Assembly (NCBI GenBank): GCA_965200245.1
Contig: CBDATS010000005.1
Location: 1 to 64,000, forward strand
DNA: 64,000 nucleotides
From: a bacterium
GTDB taxonomy: Bacteria > UBA8248
Reading direction: 5' to 3'
Below are positions 22,136-31,655 of the stretch, piece after piece. Position numbers and translations under genes: made by a program. Below the pieces are notes generated by a model. The model saw only the letters and a program-made list of their open reading frames with translations, was not told the origin of the DNA and searched no databases. Numbering within the stretch: position 1 is the stretch's first letter; every line of letters begins with the position of its first letter.

Positions 22136-23008
22136 TTACACGATACTGATCAGCGCGCCTCCCGCAACGATGAAGGCCGCTCCCAGTACCATGAGGGGCG
22201 TCAACGGTTCCATGCCTTGCGGCAGAAAACGCGAGAACAGGAGTACGAACAGGGGCTGCGCCGAGGTGATCGGCGAAACGACGACGATTCTCCCCTCCTC
22301 CAGTGCGAAGAACAGCGCCGTCAGCGCCGAGAAGCTGGCAACGCCCACGAGCACGAAATACAGCAAACCCTTCCGGGTGTAGTGCTCGCGTGCGGTTCTG
22401 GAATTTGCAAGAACCATGGCCATGACGATGCTCGAAGTACCCGCCATCACGAAAATCGCCAGCGTCTTGTAGGGCACGTCCGGCGAGGAGTAACGGATGA
22501 TGAGGTCGCGCATCACCCATATGAGTGTGGCGCCCACGGCATAGGCGATTCCGGTGAGCGCCCAGGAACGCATCTCTCCTTTCCTGATCGACAGGACCAT
22601 GATGCCGCAGATAATGAGTGCCGTTCCAAGAGCGAGTATCGGCGTGAGTTGTTCGCCAAGAAGCAACACGGCCAGCGTGCTGGAGAAGAGCGGCCCGAGA
22701 CCGCGCAAGATGCCCGAGGGGGCCGCTCCGATTCGCTGGACGCCCGCGAACTGGAAAGTCCTGGAGATGCTAGGCGTGATCATGCCGAGTCCGACGAACC
22801 AGAGCAGGTGTGGATTGGCGAAGGCGTCCAACGGCACGCTCGCCGCTATCCAGGGGAGATAGAGCAGCGCCACCGTGACCGAGGCGACGAACCCGCCAAA
22901 CACGGGAGTCGCTTCCTGCGTCGCCAGGCGCGAAAAGATGAAGGTCAGCGCGAAGAATGCCGAGGCCGCTACGGCCAGGGGAACTTCGGTCAACGTATGC
23001 CTCGCCAC
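22136..23008 (-). CDS. EamA/DMT family transporter
   Basis: 290 aa, hydrophobic; LLGEQLT, VVSPITSAQPLF. Confidence 0.88.
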   Translation of the reverse strand: MARHTLTEVPLAVAASAFFALTFIFSRLATQEATPVFGGFVASVTVALLYLPWIAASVPLDAFANPHLLWFVGLGMITPSISRTFQFAGVQRIGAAPSGILRGLGPLFSSTLAVLLLGEQLTPILALGTALIICGIMVLSIRKGEMRSWALTGIAYAVGATLIWVMRDLIIRYSSPDVPYKTLAIFVMAGTSSIVMAMVLANSRTAREHYTRKGLLYFVLVGVASFSALTALFFALEEGRIVVVSPITSAQPLFVLLFSRFLPQGMEPLTPLMVLGAAFIVAGGALISIV

Positions 23009-23048
23009 AAAAGAAAAAGCACCCCCGGTCCTTGCACCAGGGGTGCTG
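23009..23048 (-). terminator. intrinsic terminator-like hairpin
   Basis: agcacccc/ggggtgct stem followed by a U-rich run on the minus strand. Confidence 0.55.
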
Positions 23049-23066
23049 AATCAGGTGAACATCTGC

Positions 23067-24305
23067 TCAGTCCTGAATGATCAGTTCTTCGCAATAGGGA
23101 GCGCGCGTCATATAGACGGGTTCACCCTCGGTAATGAGAATGTGATCCTCGATGCGCACGCCGGCCCCGCCCGGAATGTCCGGCACGAAGATGAGCGGTT
23201 CTATGGCGAACGTCATCCCCGGCACGAACTCCACGCTCTCGGCCCCGGGCATCACCTCGCCGACATAGGGCGGCTCGTTCGGCGAAATGCCGCAGCCGTG
23301 CCCGATGAAGAGCTTGATGAAGTTGTCCTCCAAGCCCGCCGAGCGCGCGACTTCCAGGAATTCCGCCGCCGAATCGTCGTTCGTGTATCCGGGGCGCATC
23401 TTCTCGATTCCCGCCCTGAGTGCCCTGTACACGGTCGTGTACACCTTCTTCTGCATCGGATGGGGCGGACCGCCGGCCACCTTCGCGCGCCCGCAATCGC
23501 CGAAATAGCCGTTCCAGCACGCACCGATGTCGATGAACACGATGTCGGCGTTTCTGATGATTTTGTCGGTGGGAAAGCGGGTCGGCGGCGCCATGTGCTC
23601 ACCGGAAGCCACAAACGGAGACGCCAAGTGTCCGAACTCGCCGCCGTGGGTGAAGAGCGTCTTCATGGCTTCCGCCGCCACGTCGAATTCGCGCACACCG
23701 GGTTCTGCATGGTTCAGGGCCGTTATCGTCACGGCGTCGGCGATGGCGCACGCCTGGTGGAGACATGCTATCTCGTCGGGCGTCTTCTGCACCCTGCTCA
23801 TGCACATAAACTGTTCGCCGTCCACGAACGTGGCTTCGGGAAAGTATTTCTCGATCATCGCCCTCTGGGTGAATGTATGGCCGTCGAGACCGATGGTGCC
23901 GTTCGAAACCCCCCAGTCATCAAAACGTTTCTTGATATCGGTTCCTACCGTGTATTCCACGAGACCCGGTTCTTCCAGGATGCCGATGGGCACATAATCG
24001 TCAATCCAGGGCATACACTCTTCGATGCGGTGCGCCTCGCCACTCGATGCGAGCAGGGTCGGGTTGCCCTCCTGCCTGAGCAGGACACCGTAGGTGGTGG
24101 AAGAGCGGTACTGAATCATGATGACACGCGCGCTGGTGAGGTAGCGAACATTCTCGTCCTTCCAGAGGATAAGGGCGTCGATGCCCTTTTCCTTCATCGC
24201 CGCCCGCGTCTTCTCGACGCGCTCTCGGCGCATGCGATCCATGTCGATGCGGTGCTCCCAGTCGACCATCATCGACCCGCGCGCCCACGTGGGGTAGTCC
24301 GTCAT
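23067..24305 (-). CDS. M24 family (Xaa-Pro peptidase/creatinase-like) hydrolase
   Basis: ENVRYLT, KTPDEI, DIG..WNGYFGD, GHGCG, EP, GVRIED. Confidence 0.93.
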   Translation of the reverse strand: MTDYPTWARGSMMVDWEHRIDMDRMRRERVEKTRAAMKEKGIDALILWKDENVRYLTSARVIMIQYRSSTTYGVLLRQEGNPTLLASSGEAHRIEECMPWIDDYVPIGILEEPGLVEYTVGTDIKKRFDDWGVSNGTIGLDGHTFTQRAMIEKYFPEATFVDGEQFMCMSRVQKTPDEIACLHQACAIADAVTITALNHAEPGVREFDVAAEAMKTLFTHGGEFGHLASPFVASGEHMAPPTRFPTDKIIRNADIVFIDIGACWNGYFGDCGRAKVAGGPPHPMQKKVYTTVYRALRAGIEKMRPGYTNDDSAAEFLEVARSAGLEDNFIKLFIGHGCGISPNEPPYVGEVMPGAESVEFVPGMTFAIEPLIFVPDIPGGAGVRIEDHILITEGEPVYMTRAPYCEELIIQD

Positions 24306-24564
24306 TGCATCTTCCTCCTCCAAAAACAAAGATTTCGGCCTGAAAATATCGAGTCCGCAAACGATTGTCCTGAATATGAAATTCGCGGCGACGCTAGCAC
24401 CCGCGCCTTTGCCTGTCAAGAAAACACGGGTTCGGCGGACTTCCGAGGGCTGCCGAAAACGCAGACACGGTCTCCGTATCGTTGACTTCACTTCCGGGCC
24501 TCGCTACCTTCGACGTAAAAGGCACGGAACAAGCGCATTCGCCAAACCAGCAAGGAGAAACCCC

Positions 24565-25407: not shown

Positions 25408-26445
25408 ATGAGTGATACACCGAAAATCGGCATGGCCTTCATCGGTCTGGGCTGGTGGGGCGCCGTTCTCGCCGATGCTGCTCTCGCCTCCGGGAAGGTG
25501 AAGGTGACCGGCGGTTTCGCCCGCACACCCTCATCCCGTGAGGAGTTTGTCGGCAAATACGGGGGGAAGAACTTCTCCTCCATCGACGAGGTGATGGCGG
25601 ACCCCGAAACCGGGGCCGTCGTCATCGCCACGGCGAACTCCGTCCACAAGGAAATCGCCGTCGCCGCCGCACGCGCGGGCAAACACGTCCACCTGGAAAA
25701 ACCGATGGCGCTCAGTGTCTCGGACGCGAAAGCCGTCGAGCAGGCGTGCAAGGACCACGGCGTGAAACTTCACATGGGACAGAACTTCAGGCGCTGGCCG
25801 ATGTTCCGCAAGGCGAAGGAAATCGTGGAGAGCGGAGACCTCGGCCTCGTGAACTACACGGTCGCCACGTTTTCGAACAACCACGGCTTCACGGCCGGCC
25901 CCAGCAGCATGCGGTGGGACGCCACCGAAAACCCGGGAGGACCACTCTACAGCTACACCATCCATCTGGGGGACGTGATGGAATACCTCTTCGGCGATGT
26001 GGAGGAAGTAAGCGCCGCATGCGCCAAGGTGGGCGGCCCCAACCCCCAGGAAGACGCCGCCGCCGCCATCCTGCGTTTCAAGAGCGGGCTGATGGGCACG
26101 ATTTCGGGCAGCTACCTGGCACCCTTCCACTTCGCCTTCGACATCCAGGGCACTGAAGCAAACCTGAGCCTCTCGACCACCGAAAACCCGACTCTCAAAC
26201 GGCCCATCGACCTGATGGGCGGTCTCGAAACCGAAACCGTGGAACTGGAACACGATCTCGTCGAAGGAAGGCTCCTCGCCAACCGCGAGCAGTTCGACGA
26301 CCTCGTAGACGCGATTCGAGAAGACAGGAACCCCGAAGTCACCGGAAGGCACGGGGTGCGTGCGCTCGCCATCATGCGGGCGATTCTGAAGAGCAACACC
26401 GAGAGGCGGTTCGTGACGATCGAAGAAATTCTGGAGAACGACTAG
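25408..26445 (+). CDS. Gfo/Idh/MocA family oxidoreductase
   Basis: IGLGWWG, GKHVHLEKPMA, GG...H..D. Confidence 0.93.
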   Translation: MSDTPKIGMAFIGLGWWGAVLADAALASGKVKVTGGFARTPSSREEFVGKYGGKNFSSIDEVMADPETGAVVIATANSVHKEIAVAAARAGKHVHLEKPMALSVSDAKAVEQACKDHGVKLHMGQNFRRWPMFRKAKEIVESGDLGLVNYTVATFSNNHGFTAGPSSMRWDATENPGGPLYSYTIHLGDVMEYLFGDVEEVSAACAKVGGPNPQEDAAAAILRFKSGLMGTISGSYLAPFHFAFDIQGTEANLSLSTTENPTLKRPIDLMGGLETETVELEHDLVEGRLLANREQFDDLVDAIREDRNPEVTGRHGVRALAIMRAILKSNTERRFVTIEEILEND

Positions 26446-26558
26446 GCCTCGGACCGGACCCTGGCCAAAGGGAGTCCGTTCGCGTACAATCCATACTTGT
26501 TGGCCCAACGTATACCTGCGACCTGTTCCGCCCAGACTCGCTCTGGAAACAGTCCCTG

Positions 26559-27065
26559 ATGGGCAGACGCCGCGATTCACCAGACTTTATTCGCTCCAAC
26601 AAGATCCCGGCACTTGATTACCGGCCCGCAGCCCGTGAGCGCGAACTCACCCGAAAACTCATCGCATCCACCAGTGCGGGTGAGCGAGAAGTGCTGGGCC
26701 AGAATCTGCTCGACAGTATTTGCCGCAGCCTCAAAATCCCCCGCGTGCGCCTGCGTGTATTTGAAAAGCGGCAACCCCACAAGCTGCGCGACGGAAAACT
26801 CGCCTACAAACTTTTCGGTGTCTACTACTGCGACAGCGCAATAATCGAAATCGCCAACCTCACCTCCATTCGCAAGCAAACCGTCGCAGGCAAGACTTTT
26901 CTGGACACCCTCATCCACGAACTCATGCACCACGTCGACAGGAAATTTCTCAGAATCCCCTCCACCCCCCACAGTTACGGCTTTTATGCGCGCATCGCGG
27001 ACCTCAAGAACAAGCTCATGCGCGCCAAGGGAGCAGAACACCCCTCCTCTCAAGAGGCCGCCTGA
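26559..27065 (+). CDS. WLM/SprT-like zinc metalloprotease
   Basis: TLIHELMHH...PHSYGFY (HExxH plus a third His); frame stays open past the TGA to 27362. Confidence 0.7.
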   Translation: MGRRRDSPDFIRSNKIPALDYRPAARERELTRKLIASTSAGEREVLGQNLLDSICRSLKIPRVRLRVFEKRQPHKLRDGKLAYKLFGVYYCDSAIIEIANLTSIRKQTVAGKTFLDTLIHELMHHVDRKFLRIPSTPHSYGFYARIADLKNKLMRAKGAEHPSSQEAA

Positions 27066-27559
27066 CAAAGGCCCGAAAACCTGACGGCGGCTCTTGAGAT
27101 GGCGATCACAGACGCGCGGGCGAGTGACATTCCGCAAAACCCCGCAATACCGGATGCATCGGCGAGGCCCGGTACAGGAAAGCCGAGATGGAGTCCGCCG
27201 GAGAAACCGCAACCTCTCGTTCCGGCGACACAAGGAGAATCAGGCGCAGCGAAACCCCGGAACAAAACGCCGCGCACGCCGGGAGAAAAAGACACGTCTC
27301 CGAGCCATTCTCCGAAAAACACACCTTCGGAGAAAGACCCGCAATTGTCGTTCGGTTTCTGATTTCTAGAAACTACTTTAGACAAACAATATTACACCCT
27401 GAAATATAAAGTGAAAAAAATTCAGGGAATACGCCTGCCTGGAACGCTCTTCCGCCTTCCGGCTTGGACGGTTGTTTTTCATCCGGCGATTGGGTAAACA
27501 AGTGCACTGGGGATAAGTCATCATACATCCAAACACAGCTTGCAGAGGAGTTCTCTCAC

Positions 27560-28252
27560 ATGAGACCAGCTAACGATTCCGTCCCGAAACCCTGGGGCCC
27601 GATGGCGGGTTTTTGGTCCTGGCAGTACCTGAATCTCTGGAAAACGATCAAACTCGTCACCAGCAAACGGGTCAAGAGTTTTTACGAAAAATTTCCGGAC
27701 GTACTTCCTCCCGGCACCCCCTTCCCCGACTTCGAACTCAAGGACATTCACGGTAACGTCCACAGCATGTCGGGCTATCTCGGCAAGAAATACGTGGTGA
27801 TCACCACGGGCGCCATCACGTGACCGCCCTACAGGCGGCAGGTGCCGTTTTATGAGGAATTGCAGGAGAAATATTCCGACCGCGACGTGGTCGTTTTCAA
27901 TCTATACGTAAGGGAACCCCATGCGAGCGAACGCGGATTCCCGGAAATCAGAAACCACGAATCCTATGAACACAAACGCAGCTACGCCCAGAAGCTTGCC
28001 GAGATCAAGAAGATGGAAACGAATATTCTGGTCGATAAGATGGACCAGAAAGTGCACGCCATGCTCGGAGAGCTCCCGAACACCATCTGGGTCATCGGCA
28101 AGGACGGCAAGGTAGCTTACAAATGTACATGGTCCAATGCAGAACACGTGGATGAATATCTGGCGCAGATGGTAAACGAGGACCCTGCATTCGAACGGAT
28201 GCCCAAAATAGAACACACCATCTTCACCGCTCGTGCCGGCACGGCCATCTAG
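27560..28252 (+). CDS. iodothyronine deiodinase-like thioredoxin-fold selenoprotein (Sec at 27821-27823)
   Basis: PDFEL...VVITTGAIT-U-PPY...LYVREPH...GELPN; two ORFs in one frame; GAGGAG RBS. Confidence 0.85.
27834..27849 (+). promoter_or_regulatory. candidate bacterial SECIS hairpin
   Basis: GGCGGC-AGGU-GCCGUU; loop starts 16 nt after the UGA. Confidence 0.6.
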
Positions 28253-28267
28253 CGAAATTCATTCTGG

Positions 28268-28296
28268 AAAGCGCCCCTTTTTCAAGAGGCGTTTTT
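28268..28296 (+). terminator. intrinsic terminator
   Basis: gcgcccctt-tttc-aagaggcgt followed by a T run. Confidence 0.55.
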
Positions 28297-28328
28297 CGTT
28301 TCTGCAGGGAAACAAAGGGAACCGGGAC

Positions 28329-29899: not shown

Positions 29900-29928
29900 T
29901 TGACAGATGCGGGCATCATCCCTATAAA
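29900..29928 (+). promoter_or_regulatory. sigma70-like promoter
   Basis: TTGACA-17 nt-TATAAA; implies the helicase start may be the near-leaderless GTG 29937. Confidence 0.55.
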
Positions 29929-31655
29929 TGCTCACCGTGAGAATAATCAAACGTTTAGCGAGCCTCATTCGCTCCAAAAGCAAAGCAGAAGCACCTGACA
30001 GCCAGTCAAGTTCCCAGGTTCAGGAACCAGCTTCCATTCCAACCGCAGATCATACAGTGCGGAAAAACCCGCTTTCCGCCTCTACGCCCCTGAACGGCGA
30101 ACCTCCGAAAAGCAAAAACGCCCCGGAGGAGACCAAACCCGCGAAACCGCGCCGCAGGCGCAGGCCTTCGCGCGCAAAACAAAATAATGGAGAATCATTG
30201 CATACGCAAAACGCCACGAAGGCGAAATCGAAAAAACCGGAAAACAGCGAACAACCATCCAAAAACCGAAAGACAAGAAGACGCCGCGGAAAGAAAAAAA
30301 CTGCAGCGGCGGGAACCGCGCCGCAAACCGCTCGCAAGGAGGCAGGCGCATCCTATAACGGCGTCGTCTACCAGAAAGACCCCGCCGAGTTCGGCGTGGG
30401 CGATTTCAGGGTCGAAGGTGCCCCCGAGAGCTTCCGGGAACTCGGCTTCGAGCCGGAGTTGCTTCGTGGGATACAGGGCCTTGGATTCGGAGTCCCCACC
30501 CCAATCCAGCGGGAGGCGACTCCCGTTGCGCGCGAGGGCCGTGACATCATCGGCTGTGCCCAGACGGGCACCGGGAAAACGGCTTCATTCGCCCTGCCCG
30601 CGCTTGAGCGTCTGCAGGGCGGATCGGGCACGCGTTGTCTCGTACTGACGCCCACGCGGGAGTTGGCCATCCAGGTATCAGAGCAATTCCACAGGCTGGG
30701 GAAACACCTGGAAACCACATGCGCCGTCATCTACGGCGGAGTGGACTACGAGCCGCAGTTCCAAGCCTTTCAGCAGAATGTGGACATCGTTGTCGCTACG
30801 CCCGGCAGGTTGCTGGATCACCTGAACCGTAAATCCGTTCATTTCCGGAAACTGGAGATCCTCATAATCGACGAGGCAGACCGCATGCTGGACATGGGCT
30901 TCGCCGAGGAGATCACCGAAATCCTCAACCGCCTGCCCAAAAAACGCCAGACCATGCTCTTCTCCGCCACGATGCCCGAAAAAATCCAGGACCTGGCGAA
31001 TCGTGCGGTAAACGATCCGGTAAAGATCAACATCTCGCCGCCCTCGACGCCCGCGGAGGGGATCCACCACGGCGTCTACCCCATCAGCATGGCGAACAAG
31101 CCACGCGGCGTACTGGGCATCATCGACAAATACAACCCCACCAGCGTCCTTATTTTCACAAGAACCAAGGCCGGAGCCGACGCGCTATGTCATTTTCTGG
31201 AAAACGAGAAAATATCCGTCGCCAAGATTCATTCCGACAGAAGCCAGCGCCAGAGGGAGCGTGCACTGGCGGGCTTTCGCCAGGGCAAGCACCGCATTCT
31301 CGTGGCCACGGACATCGTCTCGCGAGGCATCGACGTAACAGGCATTTCGCACGTCATCAACTATGACGTCCCCGAATATCCCGAGGATTACGTGCACCGT
31401 GCGGGCAGGACGGCGCGCGCAGGACGTATCGGCTACGCCATGACGCTCATGTCGCCCGGCGAAATAACGCCCGTCAAGAACATCGAGCGTTTCATCGGCA
31501 AGGCGTTGCCCAGGGTCGGCATCAGGGATTTCGCAGACGACGTACACCAGCAAAATCTCGAAAACGAACCCAAACCCCTGGTCCACCAGCCGAGCGTCGC
31601 TCGATACGAGCGACTCCGCAAGATGCCGCGCCGTACCGGCCTCTCGCTGCGCTAG
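29928..31655 (+). CDS. DEAD-box RNA helicase (RhlE/RhlB-like) with a long basic N-terminal extension
   Basis: PTPIQ, AQTGTGKT, PTRELA, TPGR, DEAD, SAT, HRAGRTAR. Confidence 0.95.
   Translation: MLTVRIIKRLASLIRSKSKAEAPDSQSSSQVQEPASIPTADHTVRKNPLSASTPLNGEPPKSKNAPEETKPAKPRRRRRPSRAKQNNGESLHTQNATKAKSKKPENSEQPSKNRKTRRRRGKKKTAAAGTAPQTARKEAGASYNGVVYQKDPAEFGVGDFRVEGAPESFRELGFEPELLRGIQGLGFGVPTPIQREATPVAREGRDIIGCAQTGTGKTASFALPALERLQGGSGTRCLVLTPTRELAIQVSEQFHRLGKHLETTCAVIYGGVDYEPQFQAFQQNVDIVVATPGRLLDHLNRKSVHFRKLEILIIDEADRMLDMGFAEEITEILNRLPKKRQTMLFSATMPEKIQDLANRAVNDPVKINISPPSTPAEGIHHGVYPISMANKPRGVLGIIDKYNPTSVLIFTRTKAGADALCHFLENEKISVAKIHSDRSQRQRERALAGFRQGKHRILVATDIVSRGIDVTGISHVINYDVPEYPEDYVHRAGRTARAGRIGYAMTLMSPGEITPVKNIERFIGKALPRVGIRDFADDVHQQNLENEPKPLVHQPSVARYERLRKMPRRTGLSLR

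Follow-up and report, generated by a model that had tools for sequence, protein, structure and literature searches.

We analysed a 64,000-nucleotide stretch of bacterial DNA (GTDB lineage UBA8248; contig CBDATS010000005.1, positions 1 to 64,000 of the forward strand), referred to below as the window, and in it the gene at 26559-27362 (+), whose conceptual translation consists of 168 residues, a stop, a further 98 residues and a second stop. The gene belongs to a separate, uncurated family within the SprT/Wss1-like zincins, which lies outside both Pfam families by their thresholds. There is very little doubt that the stop at 27063 marks a recent nonsense allele, specific to a population, of a family gene that is otherwise intact. 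The frame beyond it encodes a disordered tail with a short conserved motif at its end, and this tail probably binds the bacterial sliding clamp (beta clamp, DnaN). Taken as a whole, we lean slightly towards an account in which the family consists of clamp-tethered proteases of the DNA-protein crosslink type and the window holds a nonsense allele of one of them; the crosslink-protease role, argued by analogy with eukaryotic enzymes, is the tentative part of this account.

The protease domain and its family

The catalytic stretch of the predicted protein reads TLIHELMHH, followed by 12 residues, H138 and then S-Y-G-F-Y. The original prediction, made without database searches, had described the signature as TLIHELMHH-x12-H and H-xx-FY; the first part is as described, and the spacing of the second is H-x3-FY (H-S-Y-G-F-Y). 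Among 130 aligned family representatives H120, E121, H124, D127 and F142 are invariant and H125, H138, G141 and R145 are nearly so, which gives the family signature HExxHHxD...H..GFYxR. The protein has the SprT-like layout of an HExxH and a third His 10-15 residues further on (H120-E-L-M-H124 and H138), and these are the predicted zinc ligands. The isoelectric point of the catalytic domain is 10.2.

Concerning the relatives of this domain, a search with the 168-residue product returned 54 proteins at E <= 0.001 among 87 candidates, most of them 264-289 residues long. None of the 54 contains a Pfam domain, and the few named ones are hypothetical proteins of Nitrospinae/Nitrospinaceae metagenome-assembled genomes (MAGs). 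When 1.84 billion cluster representatives were searched with a profile of the N-terminal domain, 580 proteins matched at E <= 0.001; the number falls to 245 at E <= 1e-10 and to 11 at E <= 1e-30. In the ESM Atlas the protein is placed among unnamed clusters of hypothetical proteins, with WLM and SprT-like clusters further down. Based on Pfam and NCBIfam, the window protein has no recognised family: the only match is WLM (E 0.18, 12.3 bits against a cut-off of 26), and the Pfam SprT-like model (PF10263, gathering cut-off 25.6 bits) gives no match at E <= 1. When the 130 representatives are compared with Pfam, 55 have sub-threshold SprT-like matches (E <= 0.1; best E 6.5e-5), 35 match WLM (PF08325; E <= 0.1, best E 2.8e-5) and 29 match M76; the six SprT-like matches with scores reach 14.6-18.3 bits, under the 25.6-bit cut-off.

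The list of taxa that contain the family is a lower bound, as it was drawn up from one pattern, HEFMHH[YL]D, derived from a 27-sequence subset. Among named genome records, the pattern is found in Brocadiaceae and other Planctomycetota, Nitrospinota, Tectomicrobia, Bacteroidales/Prevotella and a Clostridia MAG. It is also present in deltaproteobacterial/Myxococcales MAGs, Eisenbacteria, Elusimicrobiota, Gemmatimonadales, and Thermoanaerobaculia and Polarisedimenticolia MAGs.

In the AlphaFold2 model (43-sequence alignment), the predicted local distance difference test score (pLDDT) is mostly >90 over residues 1-155. The four best distinct PDB entries in Foldseek are all Wss1 (5xbv, 5xbn, 5ln5 and 5jig; E 0.024-0.12, probability 0.84-0.99), with a template modelling score (target) of about 0.55. 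An exhaustive comparison with VIA-align places human SPRTN (6mdx_A) first with Z 8.0 (root mean square deviation 3.2, 107 residues aligned), followed by Wss1 5xbn_A (Z 7.7) and Wss1 5ln5_A (Z 6.9), best values of 7-8 being typical even for models without a true match. Further neighbours are YbeY-like proteins, minigluzincins, PprI (Z 5.8), CapP (Z 5.5) and ArdC (Z 5.1). The top structural neighbours agree with the Wss1/Spartan-like domain that had been proposed from the sequence. In profile searches against the PDB, the 130-sequence profile has S. pombe Wss1 (5jig_A, E 0.0071) as its sole credible match, and a narrow profile (A2) has 0 matches at E <= 10.

The sole Pfam SprT-like match in the window's genome is located elsewhere, at G000:C12:4242-4415 (-) (locus L056; 28.8 bits, just above the cut-off), in an open reading frame (ORF) of 150 residues on a small 9.6-kb contig. 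This could be another SprT-type gene, unrelated to the first, or part of a mobile element or contaminant.

The disordered tail and its terminal motif

Past the TGA at 27063-27065 the frame is open for 98 sense codons, up to the TGA at 27360-27362, and the C-terminus reads ...EKDPQLSFGF. A 98-codon open run at about 60% G+C has a chance expectation of about 4%, as estimated from base composition, and the open frame alone proves nothing; the read-through frame is regarded as genuine coding sequence because homologs of 264-289 residues align along its full length, end motif included. The in-frame tail ending in DPQLSFGF that had been noticed earlier is thus confirmed by both translation and homolog alignment.

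The Nitrospinaceae proteins extend the domain with W-x-x-P, a short conserved helix and a Pro/Lys/Ser-rich linker, which is variable in both length and sequence among relatives. P172, L175 and A178 are invariant in the tail region. AlphaFold2 predicts the helix at residues 175-191 with a pLDDT of about 70; residues 193-264 have a pLDDT <50, i.e. they are predicted to be disordered, and the motif at the C-terminus would accordingly be accessible. Identity between the window protein and 18 homologs is 0.76 over residues 1-155, 0.31 over the linker and 0.67 over the last 8 residues, the pattern of a short linear motif carried by a disordered leash.

The end motif, written as Q[LM]x[LFM]x[LFIY], is found in 45 of 53 homolog representatives. 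Looking at the full-length homologs separately, for which retention of the tail and of a terminal clamp-type motif had been suggested as a check, 43 of the 45 with at least 225 residues keep the tail and end in QLxFDF or QLxLxF; the two exceptions are P0005, with ten extra residues past the motif, and P0017, with a different end. The Gln of the motif is invariant and the Leu nearly so. Distant Nitrospinota and one Tectomicrobia MAG have the ends QLTLDFED, QLELGFDEETP, QLSLELR, QLLLDFEPP... and QLALAFGEEEM. In the wider family, the motif is located within the last 20 residues of 9 of 43 tailed representatives, including QLMLPF, QLTLPF, QLLLF and QLSLF. The background of the motif in the window's genome is 12 of 10294 ORFs.

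According to the accessible part of a review of beta-clamp partners (PMC11139829), clamp-binding motifs have the forms Q-phi-x-[L/M]-[F/L] and Q-phi-x-[L/M]-x-[F/L], and QLxLF and QLxLxF are the strongest. The Q, the L and the last F of QLSFGF in the window and of QLSFDF in the genus fit the published motif, and position 4 is F, not L/M; QLTLDF, QLALAF, QLELGF, QLMLPF, QLTLPF, QLLLF and QLSLF of relatives fit it fully. In the window's genome the strict C-terminal clamp pattern is found in 0 of 10294 ORFs of at least 100 residues, and a looser pattern in 12 of 20325 ORFs of at least 60 residues, none of which is an obvious clamp partner. No recognisable C-terminal motif, against which the local form might be calibrated, is seen in the Pol IV homolog of this genome (L053); a second Y-family gene (L054) ends in ...PQLEGFQ.

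The complex modelled contains two copies of the genome's own DnaN (384 residues, G000:C4) and the last 40 residues of the tail. The ipSAE was 0.70, 0.70 and 0.69 in three runs, and 0.03 in the best of 3 controls; in the calibration of the method, 116 of 157 solved complexes attained this mark, as did 2 of 215 mismatched pairs, but the alignments used here lie outside that calibration. The runs share at least 59% of contacts, and the pLDDT of the partner is 45-46, i.e. below 50. In the model, tail residues 91-98 (DPQLSFGF) contact T173, G175, H176, L178, P263, K264 and V268 of DnaN, and further contacts are T297, M299, N338, L362 and M380-P381-M382-R383. The residues of subsites I and II in E. 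coli include T172, G174, H175, L177, P242, V247, N320 and M362-R365, as given in the accessible part of the clamp review (PMC11139829). Most of the DnaN contacts are positional counterparts of these residues, and the motif is thus modelled in the peptide cleft of the clamp, the outcome for which a complex model with DnaN had originally been proposed as a check. Clamp-peptide complexes are solved textbook cases, and the good score may reflect likeness to these. The complex model indicates that the peptide resembles a clamp ligand; it does not establish binding.

The QLxFDF end may also be read as a short linear motif for a partner other than the clamp, for instance as an acidic-aromatic tip like that of the SSB tail, as a degron recognised by an AAA+ protease, or as a signal for the membrane or for secretion. 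The Phe at position 4 in place of Leu/Met would suit such a partner, the acidic residue and terminal Phe recall the C-terminal tip of SSB, and other branches have quite different conserved ends, ...IDWP[EA]TNRRKA and ...RLWxIIRxL, as if the tail were a swappable address label. An SSB-tip mimic, however, would need a free carboxylate, whereas 1-12 residues are tolerated past the motif (FDFQ, LDFEG, LAFGDADGPP). The conservation of the Gln and Leu, the textbook QLLLF, QLSLF and QLTLPF of relatives and the choice of the clamp cleft by the complex model also argue against a non-clamp partner, to which we assign a small probability, and the clamp remains the probable ligand of the tail.

The other branches of the family end in ...SR.IDWP[EA]TNRRKA... 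or ...LL[EQ]RLW.IIR.L (L093, L094, L096, L097, L099, L100 and L101; P0127 and P0130), and the loci with these alternative ends come from Eisenbacteria, Polarisedimenticolia, Gemmatimonadales and Bacteroidota MAGs. Such variety suggests that one catalytic module is directed to different partners through swaps of its terminal peptide.

The internal stop codon

The codon at 27063 is TGG (Trp) in 19 of 19 relatives' loci; the local codons are GCC TGA CAA in the window versus GCC TGG CAA/GAG in the relatives, and W169 is invariant in the alignment of 43 homologs. The change is therefore TGG to TGA, and not CGA to TGA as the original prediction supposed. The gene is matched in 37 of the 51 phylum genomes searched, and internal stops are found only in the window's genome (G000), with one TGA in the gene, and in G024, with a TGA plus a TAG and a match in two pieces. 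The G024 copy (G024:C10:384267-385095, minus strand) is a broken ortholog in the same genus and represents a second, independent loss.

The sequencing runs contain both alleles, which bears out the nonsense allele at the very position where a look at the reads had been advised. The contig of run X1, the probable source, has 0 differences from the window over 26400-27500 (1101 bases) and A at 27065, with a word depth of 14.4. A contig of X4, which belongs to another study and is labelled sponge metagenome, differs in 1 of 1101 bases, and this is 27065 A>G, giving TGG. In X9, from a third study, 1 of 1 raw read has G at 27065. Run X2, a second sample from the study of X1, holds a fraction of 1.00 of the sampled words. 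As both alleles are present in near-identical populations (A in X1, G in X4 and X9), the stop is a very recent nonsense substitution, and this accounts for the undamaged state of the 98 codons beyond it.

A sequencing or assembly error in the MAG, with a true gene that is intact and has TGG, is an improbable alternative. The genome has 8.1% contamination, G is seen at 27065 in the contig of another study and in one raw read, and stray stops do occur in such assemblies: the dnaN of a relative (G015:C111:1116-2267, minus strand) has one in-frame TGA. The error reading is opposed by the independently built X1 contig, with A at a word depth of 14.4 and 0 differences in 1101 bases, by the complete retention of the sampled words in the second sample, and by the nature of the change, which is a substitution and not a homopolymer indel.

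Deliberate decoding of the TGA, as selenocysteine or through regulated read-through with short and long isoforms, seems to us very unlikely. The genome does have a tRNA-SeC gene, a conserved selenoprotein with its own in-frame TGA is encoded by the next gene, and a UGA followed by C is a leaky stop context. However, the codon is TGG in all 19 relatives' loci and in the near-identical contig X4, and the position is that of an invariant linker Trp rather than of a redox site. The 60 nt that follow the stop are no better folded than shuffles (z = -0.10) and Rfam has no match in 26400-28300, in line with the earlier remark that no convincing selenocysteine insertion sequence (SECIS) was seen; the combination of a conserved UGA and a SECIS that would mark a selenoprotein or programmed recoding is not found at 27063. 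Of the two explanations first offered for the stop, the nonsense split is thus retained and regulated read-through is not supported. An alternative genetic code is ruled out, as TGA is the commonest stop in the window's genome, where it ends 1060 of 2169 ORFs of at least 300 residues. TGA-C is the least used TGA context there (177 of 1060), which hints weakly that a leaky stop is avoided.

Concerning the product of the truncated allele, the TGA at Trp169 would leave an untethered catalytic domain of 168 residues, sized like many tail-less members of the family. It is probably a folded, untethered protease rather than the remnant of a dead gene; the whole catalytic domain is kept and its size is like that of tail-less relatives. 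Near-cognate reading of UGA by tRNA-Trp would restore Trp, and some full-length protein may still be made from the truncated allele. The stop codon itself is an ordinary recent nonsense allele.

Relation to known systems, proposed role and surroundings

The best structural neighbour of the domain is SPRTN (6mdx), and the layout of HExxH with a downstream His is common to both. The two proteins also have in common a protease domain, a disordered tail and a short motif that binds a sliding clamp, or in the window protein is a candidate to do so; in SPRTN this motif is a PCNA-interacting peptide (PIP) box (accessible part of PMC7782752). They differ in sequence (12% identity), the window protein lacks a SprT-like match in Pfam, and no zinc-binding subdomain, SHP box or ubiquitin-binding zinc finger is seen in it. 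The clamp would be the bacterial beta clamp and the motif of the QLxLxF type, as against the PIP box of SPRTN. The resemblance to SPRTN looks like convergence, not orthology. Wss1 provides the top Foldseek matches and the only credible PDB profile match, and it has a similarly minimal domain and an aromatic pair after the third His. The window protein differs from it in staying under the WLM cut-off; moreover, Wss1 is tethered via SUMO- and Cdc48-binding motifs, not via a clamp motif.

Compared with the known beta-clamp partners (Pol II, Pol IV, Pol III alpha, Hda, MutL and others), the predicted tail is alike in having a QL-x-hydrophobic-x-hydrophobic sequence at the end of a disordered segment, which the model docks at subsites I and II; the Phe at motif position 4 in the window's genus is a difference. 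FAM111A is likewise a protease with a PIP box (accessible part of PMC7782752), while clamp and motif are bacterial here. The words 'protease' and 'SprT' are absent from the accessible part of the 2024 review on partners of the beta clamp (PMC11139829), and a protease would therefore be a new class of clamp partner. For bacterial crosslink repair, the accessible part of the second review describes only nuclease-based routes, nucleotide excision repair and recombination (PMC7782752). Our literature search, whose scope excluded subscription-only papers, found no description of a bacterial clamp-binding SprT/Wss1-like protease. Eukaryotes are known to combine a protease with a clamp tether; for bacteria, the literature searched describes neither the present family nor its clamp motif or swappable tails.

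The mechanism we propose starts from a basic zincin of about 155 residues, followed in Nitrospinota and Tectomicrobia by the invariant Trp-x-x-P, the short helix and a disordered linker of 60-180 residues that ends in QLx[F/L]x[F/L]. The terminal peptide would most likely sit in the hydrophobic cleft of the sliding clamp DnaN, and clamp binding would enrich the protease where clamps are loaded on DNA, at replication forks and repair patches. There it would degrade proteins that block DNA or are crosslinked to it, by analogy with SPRTN, where a PIP box meets PCNA, and with Wss1.

A wider and speculative reading, which we regard as possible, is that Nitrospinota, Tectomicrobia and scattered lineages evolved a replisome-tethered SprT/Wss1-like protease independently of eukaryotes and that the module was re-addressed by peptide swaps. 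A minimal DNA-dependent zincin, a disordered leash and a beta-clamp peptide would then be the equivalent of SPRTN-PCNA at the bacterial fork; the terminal peptide could be the clamp motif, ...IDWPxTNRRKA, ...RLWxIIRxL or none; and the window allele would be a natural leash-less mutant in a population found in metagenomes labelled as sponge.

The protease may also be clamp-tethered and have as substrates regulatory proteins bound to the clamp or to DNA, rather than covalent crosslinks, with turnover of polymerases, repressors or the clamp loader, as for IrrE/PprI, ImmA, CapP and FAM111A. PprI, CapP and ArdC are among the structural neighbours, and a divergent Cro/C1-type helix-turn-helix gene adjoins a tail-less member in one Bacteroides locus (L077). 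In addition, the PIP-box protease FAM111A may cleave replication-fork proteins (accessible part of PMC7782752). In Nitrospinota, however, no repressor gene is conserved beside the protease gene. The top three structural matches are crosslink proteases, and the strongly basic catalytic domain would fit DNA-dependent activation. Regulatory substrates thus seem rather unlikely to us, and crosslinked or blocking proteins are kept as the tentative substrates.

Several observations weigh against the proposed role, in addition to the modest VIA-align scores and the cautions given with the complex model. The window protein reaches neither the SprT-like nor the WLM cut-off of Pfam, and Foldseek gives no match at E <= 0.001. 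Most of the wider family is tail-less, 95 of 147 listed representatives ending at most 45 residues past HExxH (these members stop directly after the GFYxRIxDLKxKL helix), and the motif is carried by only 9 of the 43 tailed members of the wider family. Motif position 4 is Phe in the genus versus Leu/Met in the published consensus, and the genome's own Pol IV homolog lacks a recognisable C-terminal motif. The gene evidently looks dispensable, being truncated in the window and broken in G024; among the 51 phylum genomes searched it was not found in 4 of 4 small genomes of the genus g8, nor in G028. The neighbours of the gene encode a Gfo/Idh/MocA oxidoreductase, a selenoprotein, a DinB_2-fold protein, a luciferase-like monooxygenase and a DEAD-box helicase, with an M24 peptidase further upstream, and the neighbourhood contains no replication or repair gene. 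It is also unconserved outside Nitrospinota, where the neighbours are unrelated. The crosslink-protease function that had been suggested at the outset remains an analogy; the gene neighbourhood gives it no support.

Dedicated crosslink proteases (Wss1 and SPRTN) are established in eukaryotes, and for bacteria the tailed family is a testable candidate for proteolysis coupled to replication; its architecture would be clearly convergent with that of SPRTN-PCNA. The family has 580 representatives and no Pfam or NCBIfam model, and annotation in Planctomycetota, Bacteroidota, Nitrospinota and other phyla would benefit from its definition.

Table 1. Coordinates of the protease gene and its upstream element in the window
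Feature	Position	Strand	Basis or remark
Putative -10 promoter hexamer TACAAT (TATAAT in relatives)	26485..26490	+	Conserved leader; function proposed from sequence
ORF of the truncated allele, 168 codons	26559..27062	+	Full basic SprT/Wss1-like zincin domain (residues 1-155) and start of the linker
Catalytic motif HELMHH-V-D...H138, residues 120-138	26916..26972	+	Invariant columns in 130 family representatives
In-frame TGA at the invariant Trp169 codon (TGG>TGA; G>A at 27065)	27063..27065	+	Relatives and read contigs
Conserved short helix past W-x-x-P, residues 175-191, untranslated in the truncated allele	27081..27131	+	AlphaFold2, alignment
Disordered Pro/Lys/Ser-rich linker, residues 192-261, without stops or frameshifts	27132..27341	+	pLDDT, alignment
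Terminal QLSFGF, candidate beta-clamp-binding motif (QLSFDF in most of the genus)	27342..27359	+	Conservation, complex model

The features of the gene are listed in Table 1. The leader at 26446-26558 (alignment A7) is conserved, with invariant GTTCCGCCC and GGAAAC/GGGAGC blocks between which pairing is possible, and it may be a regulatory 5' leader. The TATAAT hexamer is kept in 16 of 18 aligned upstream regions, about 70 nt ahead of the start codon. An inverted repeat suspected at about 26483-26500 as a LexA/SOS operator was rejected: it is the -10 box region, and the repeat is unconserved in the 18 upstream regions. RNA run X6 contains one 241-base contig, which covers 26459-26699 only, too little to claim transcription of the gene or of its tail.

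The next gene, at 27560-28252 (+), encodes a thioredoxin-fold protein with an in-frame TGA at 27821-27823 (...TTGAIT-[TGA]-PPYRRQVPFYEEL...), and ORF calling splits it in two. The window locus and the loci of 12 relatives share this TGA and a CCGCC-N5-GGCGG hairpin that begins 2 nt further on, and a tRNA-SeC(tca) gene is located on contig C8 of the window's genome. The T-U-PP[YF] site recalls, in our view, deiodinase-like selenoproteins. This downstream gene is very likely a genuine selenoprotein gene.

A DEAD-box helicase gene is found at 29928-31655 (+), and its product has a long Lys/Pro/Ser-rich N-terminal extension, as also in L066, L068 and L069; in several Nitrospinota it lies 0.2-2.6 kb downstream of the protease gene. 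In G020, G025, G026, G030 and G031 the protease tail has weak secondary matches about 2 kb away, which are probably due to the low-complexity N-terminus of the helicase. Upstream of the protease gene, a 474-residue ORF at 23067-24491 (-) and a 536-residue ORF at 22875-24485 (+) overlap almost fully; the minus-strand ORF is likely the real one, because M24 peptidase genes occupy that position in other Nitrospinota loci.

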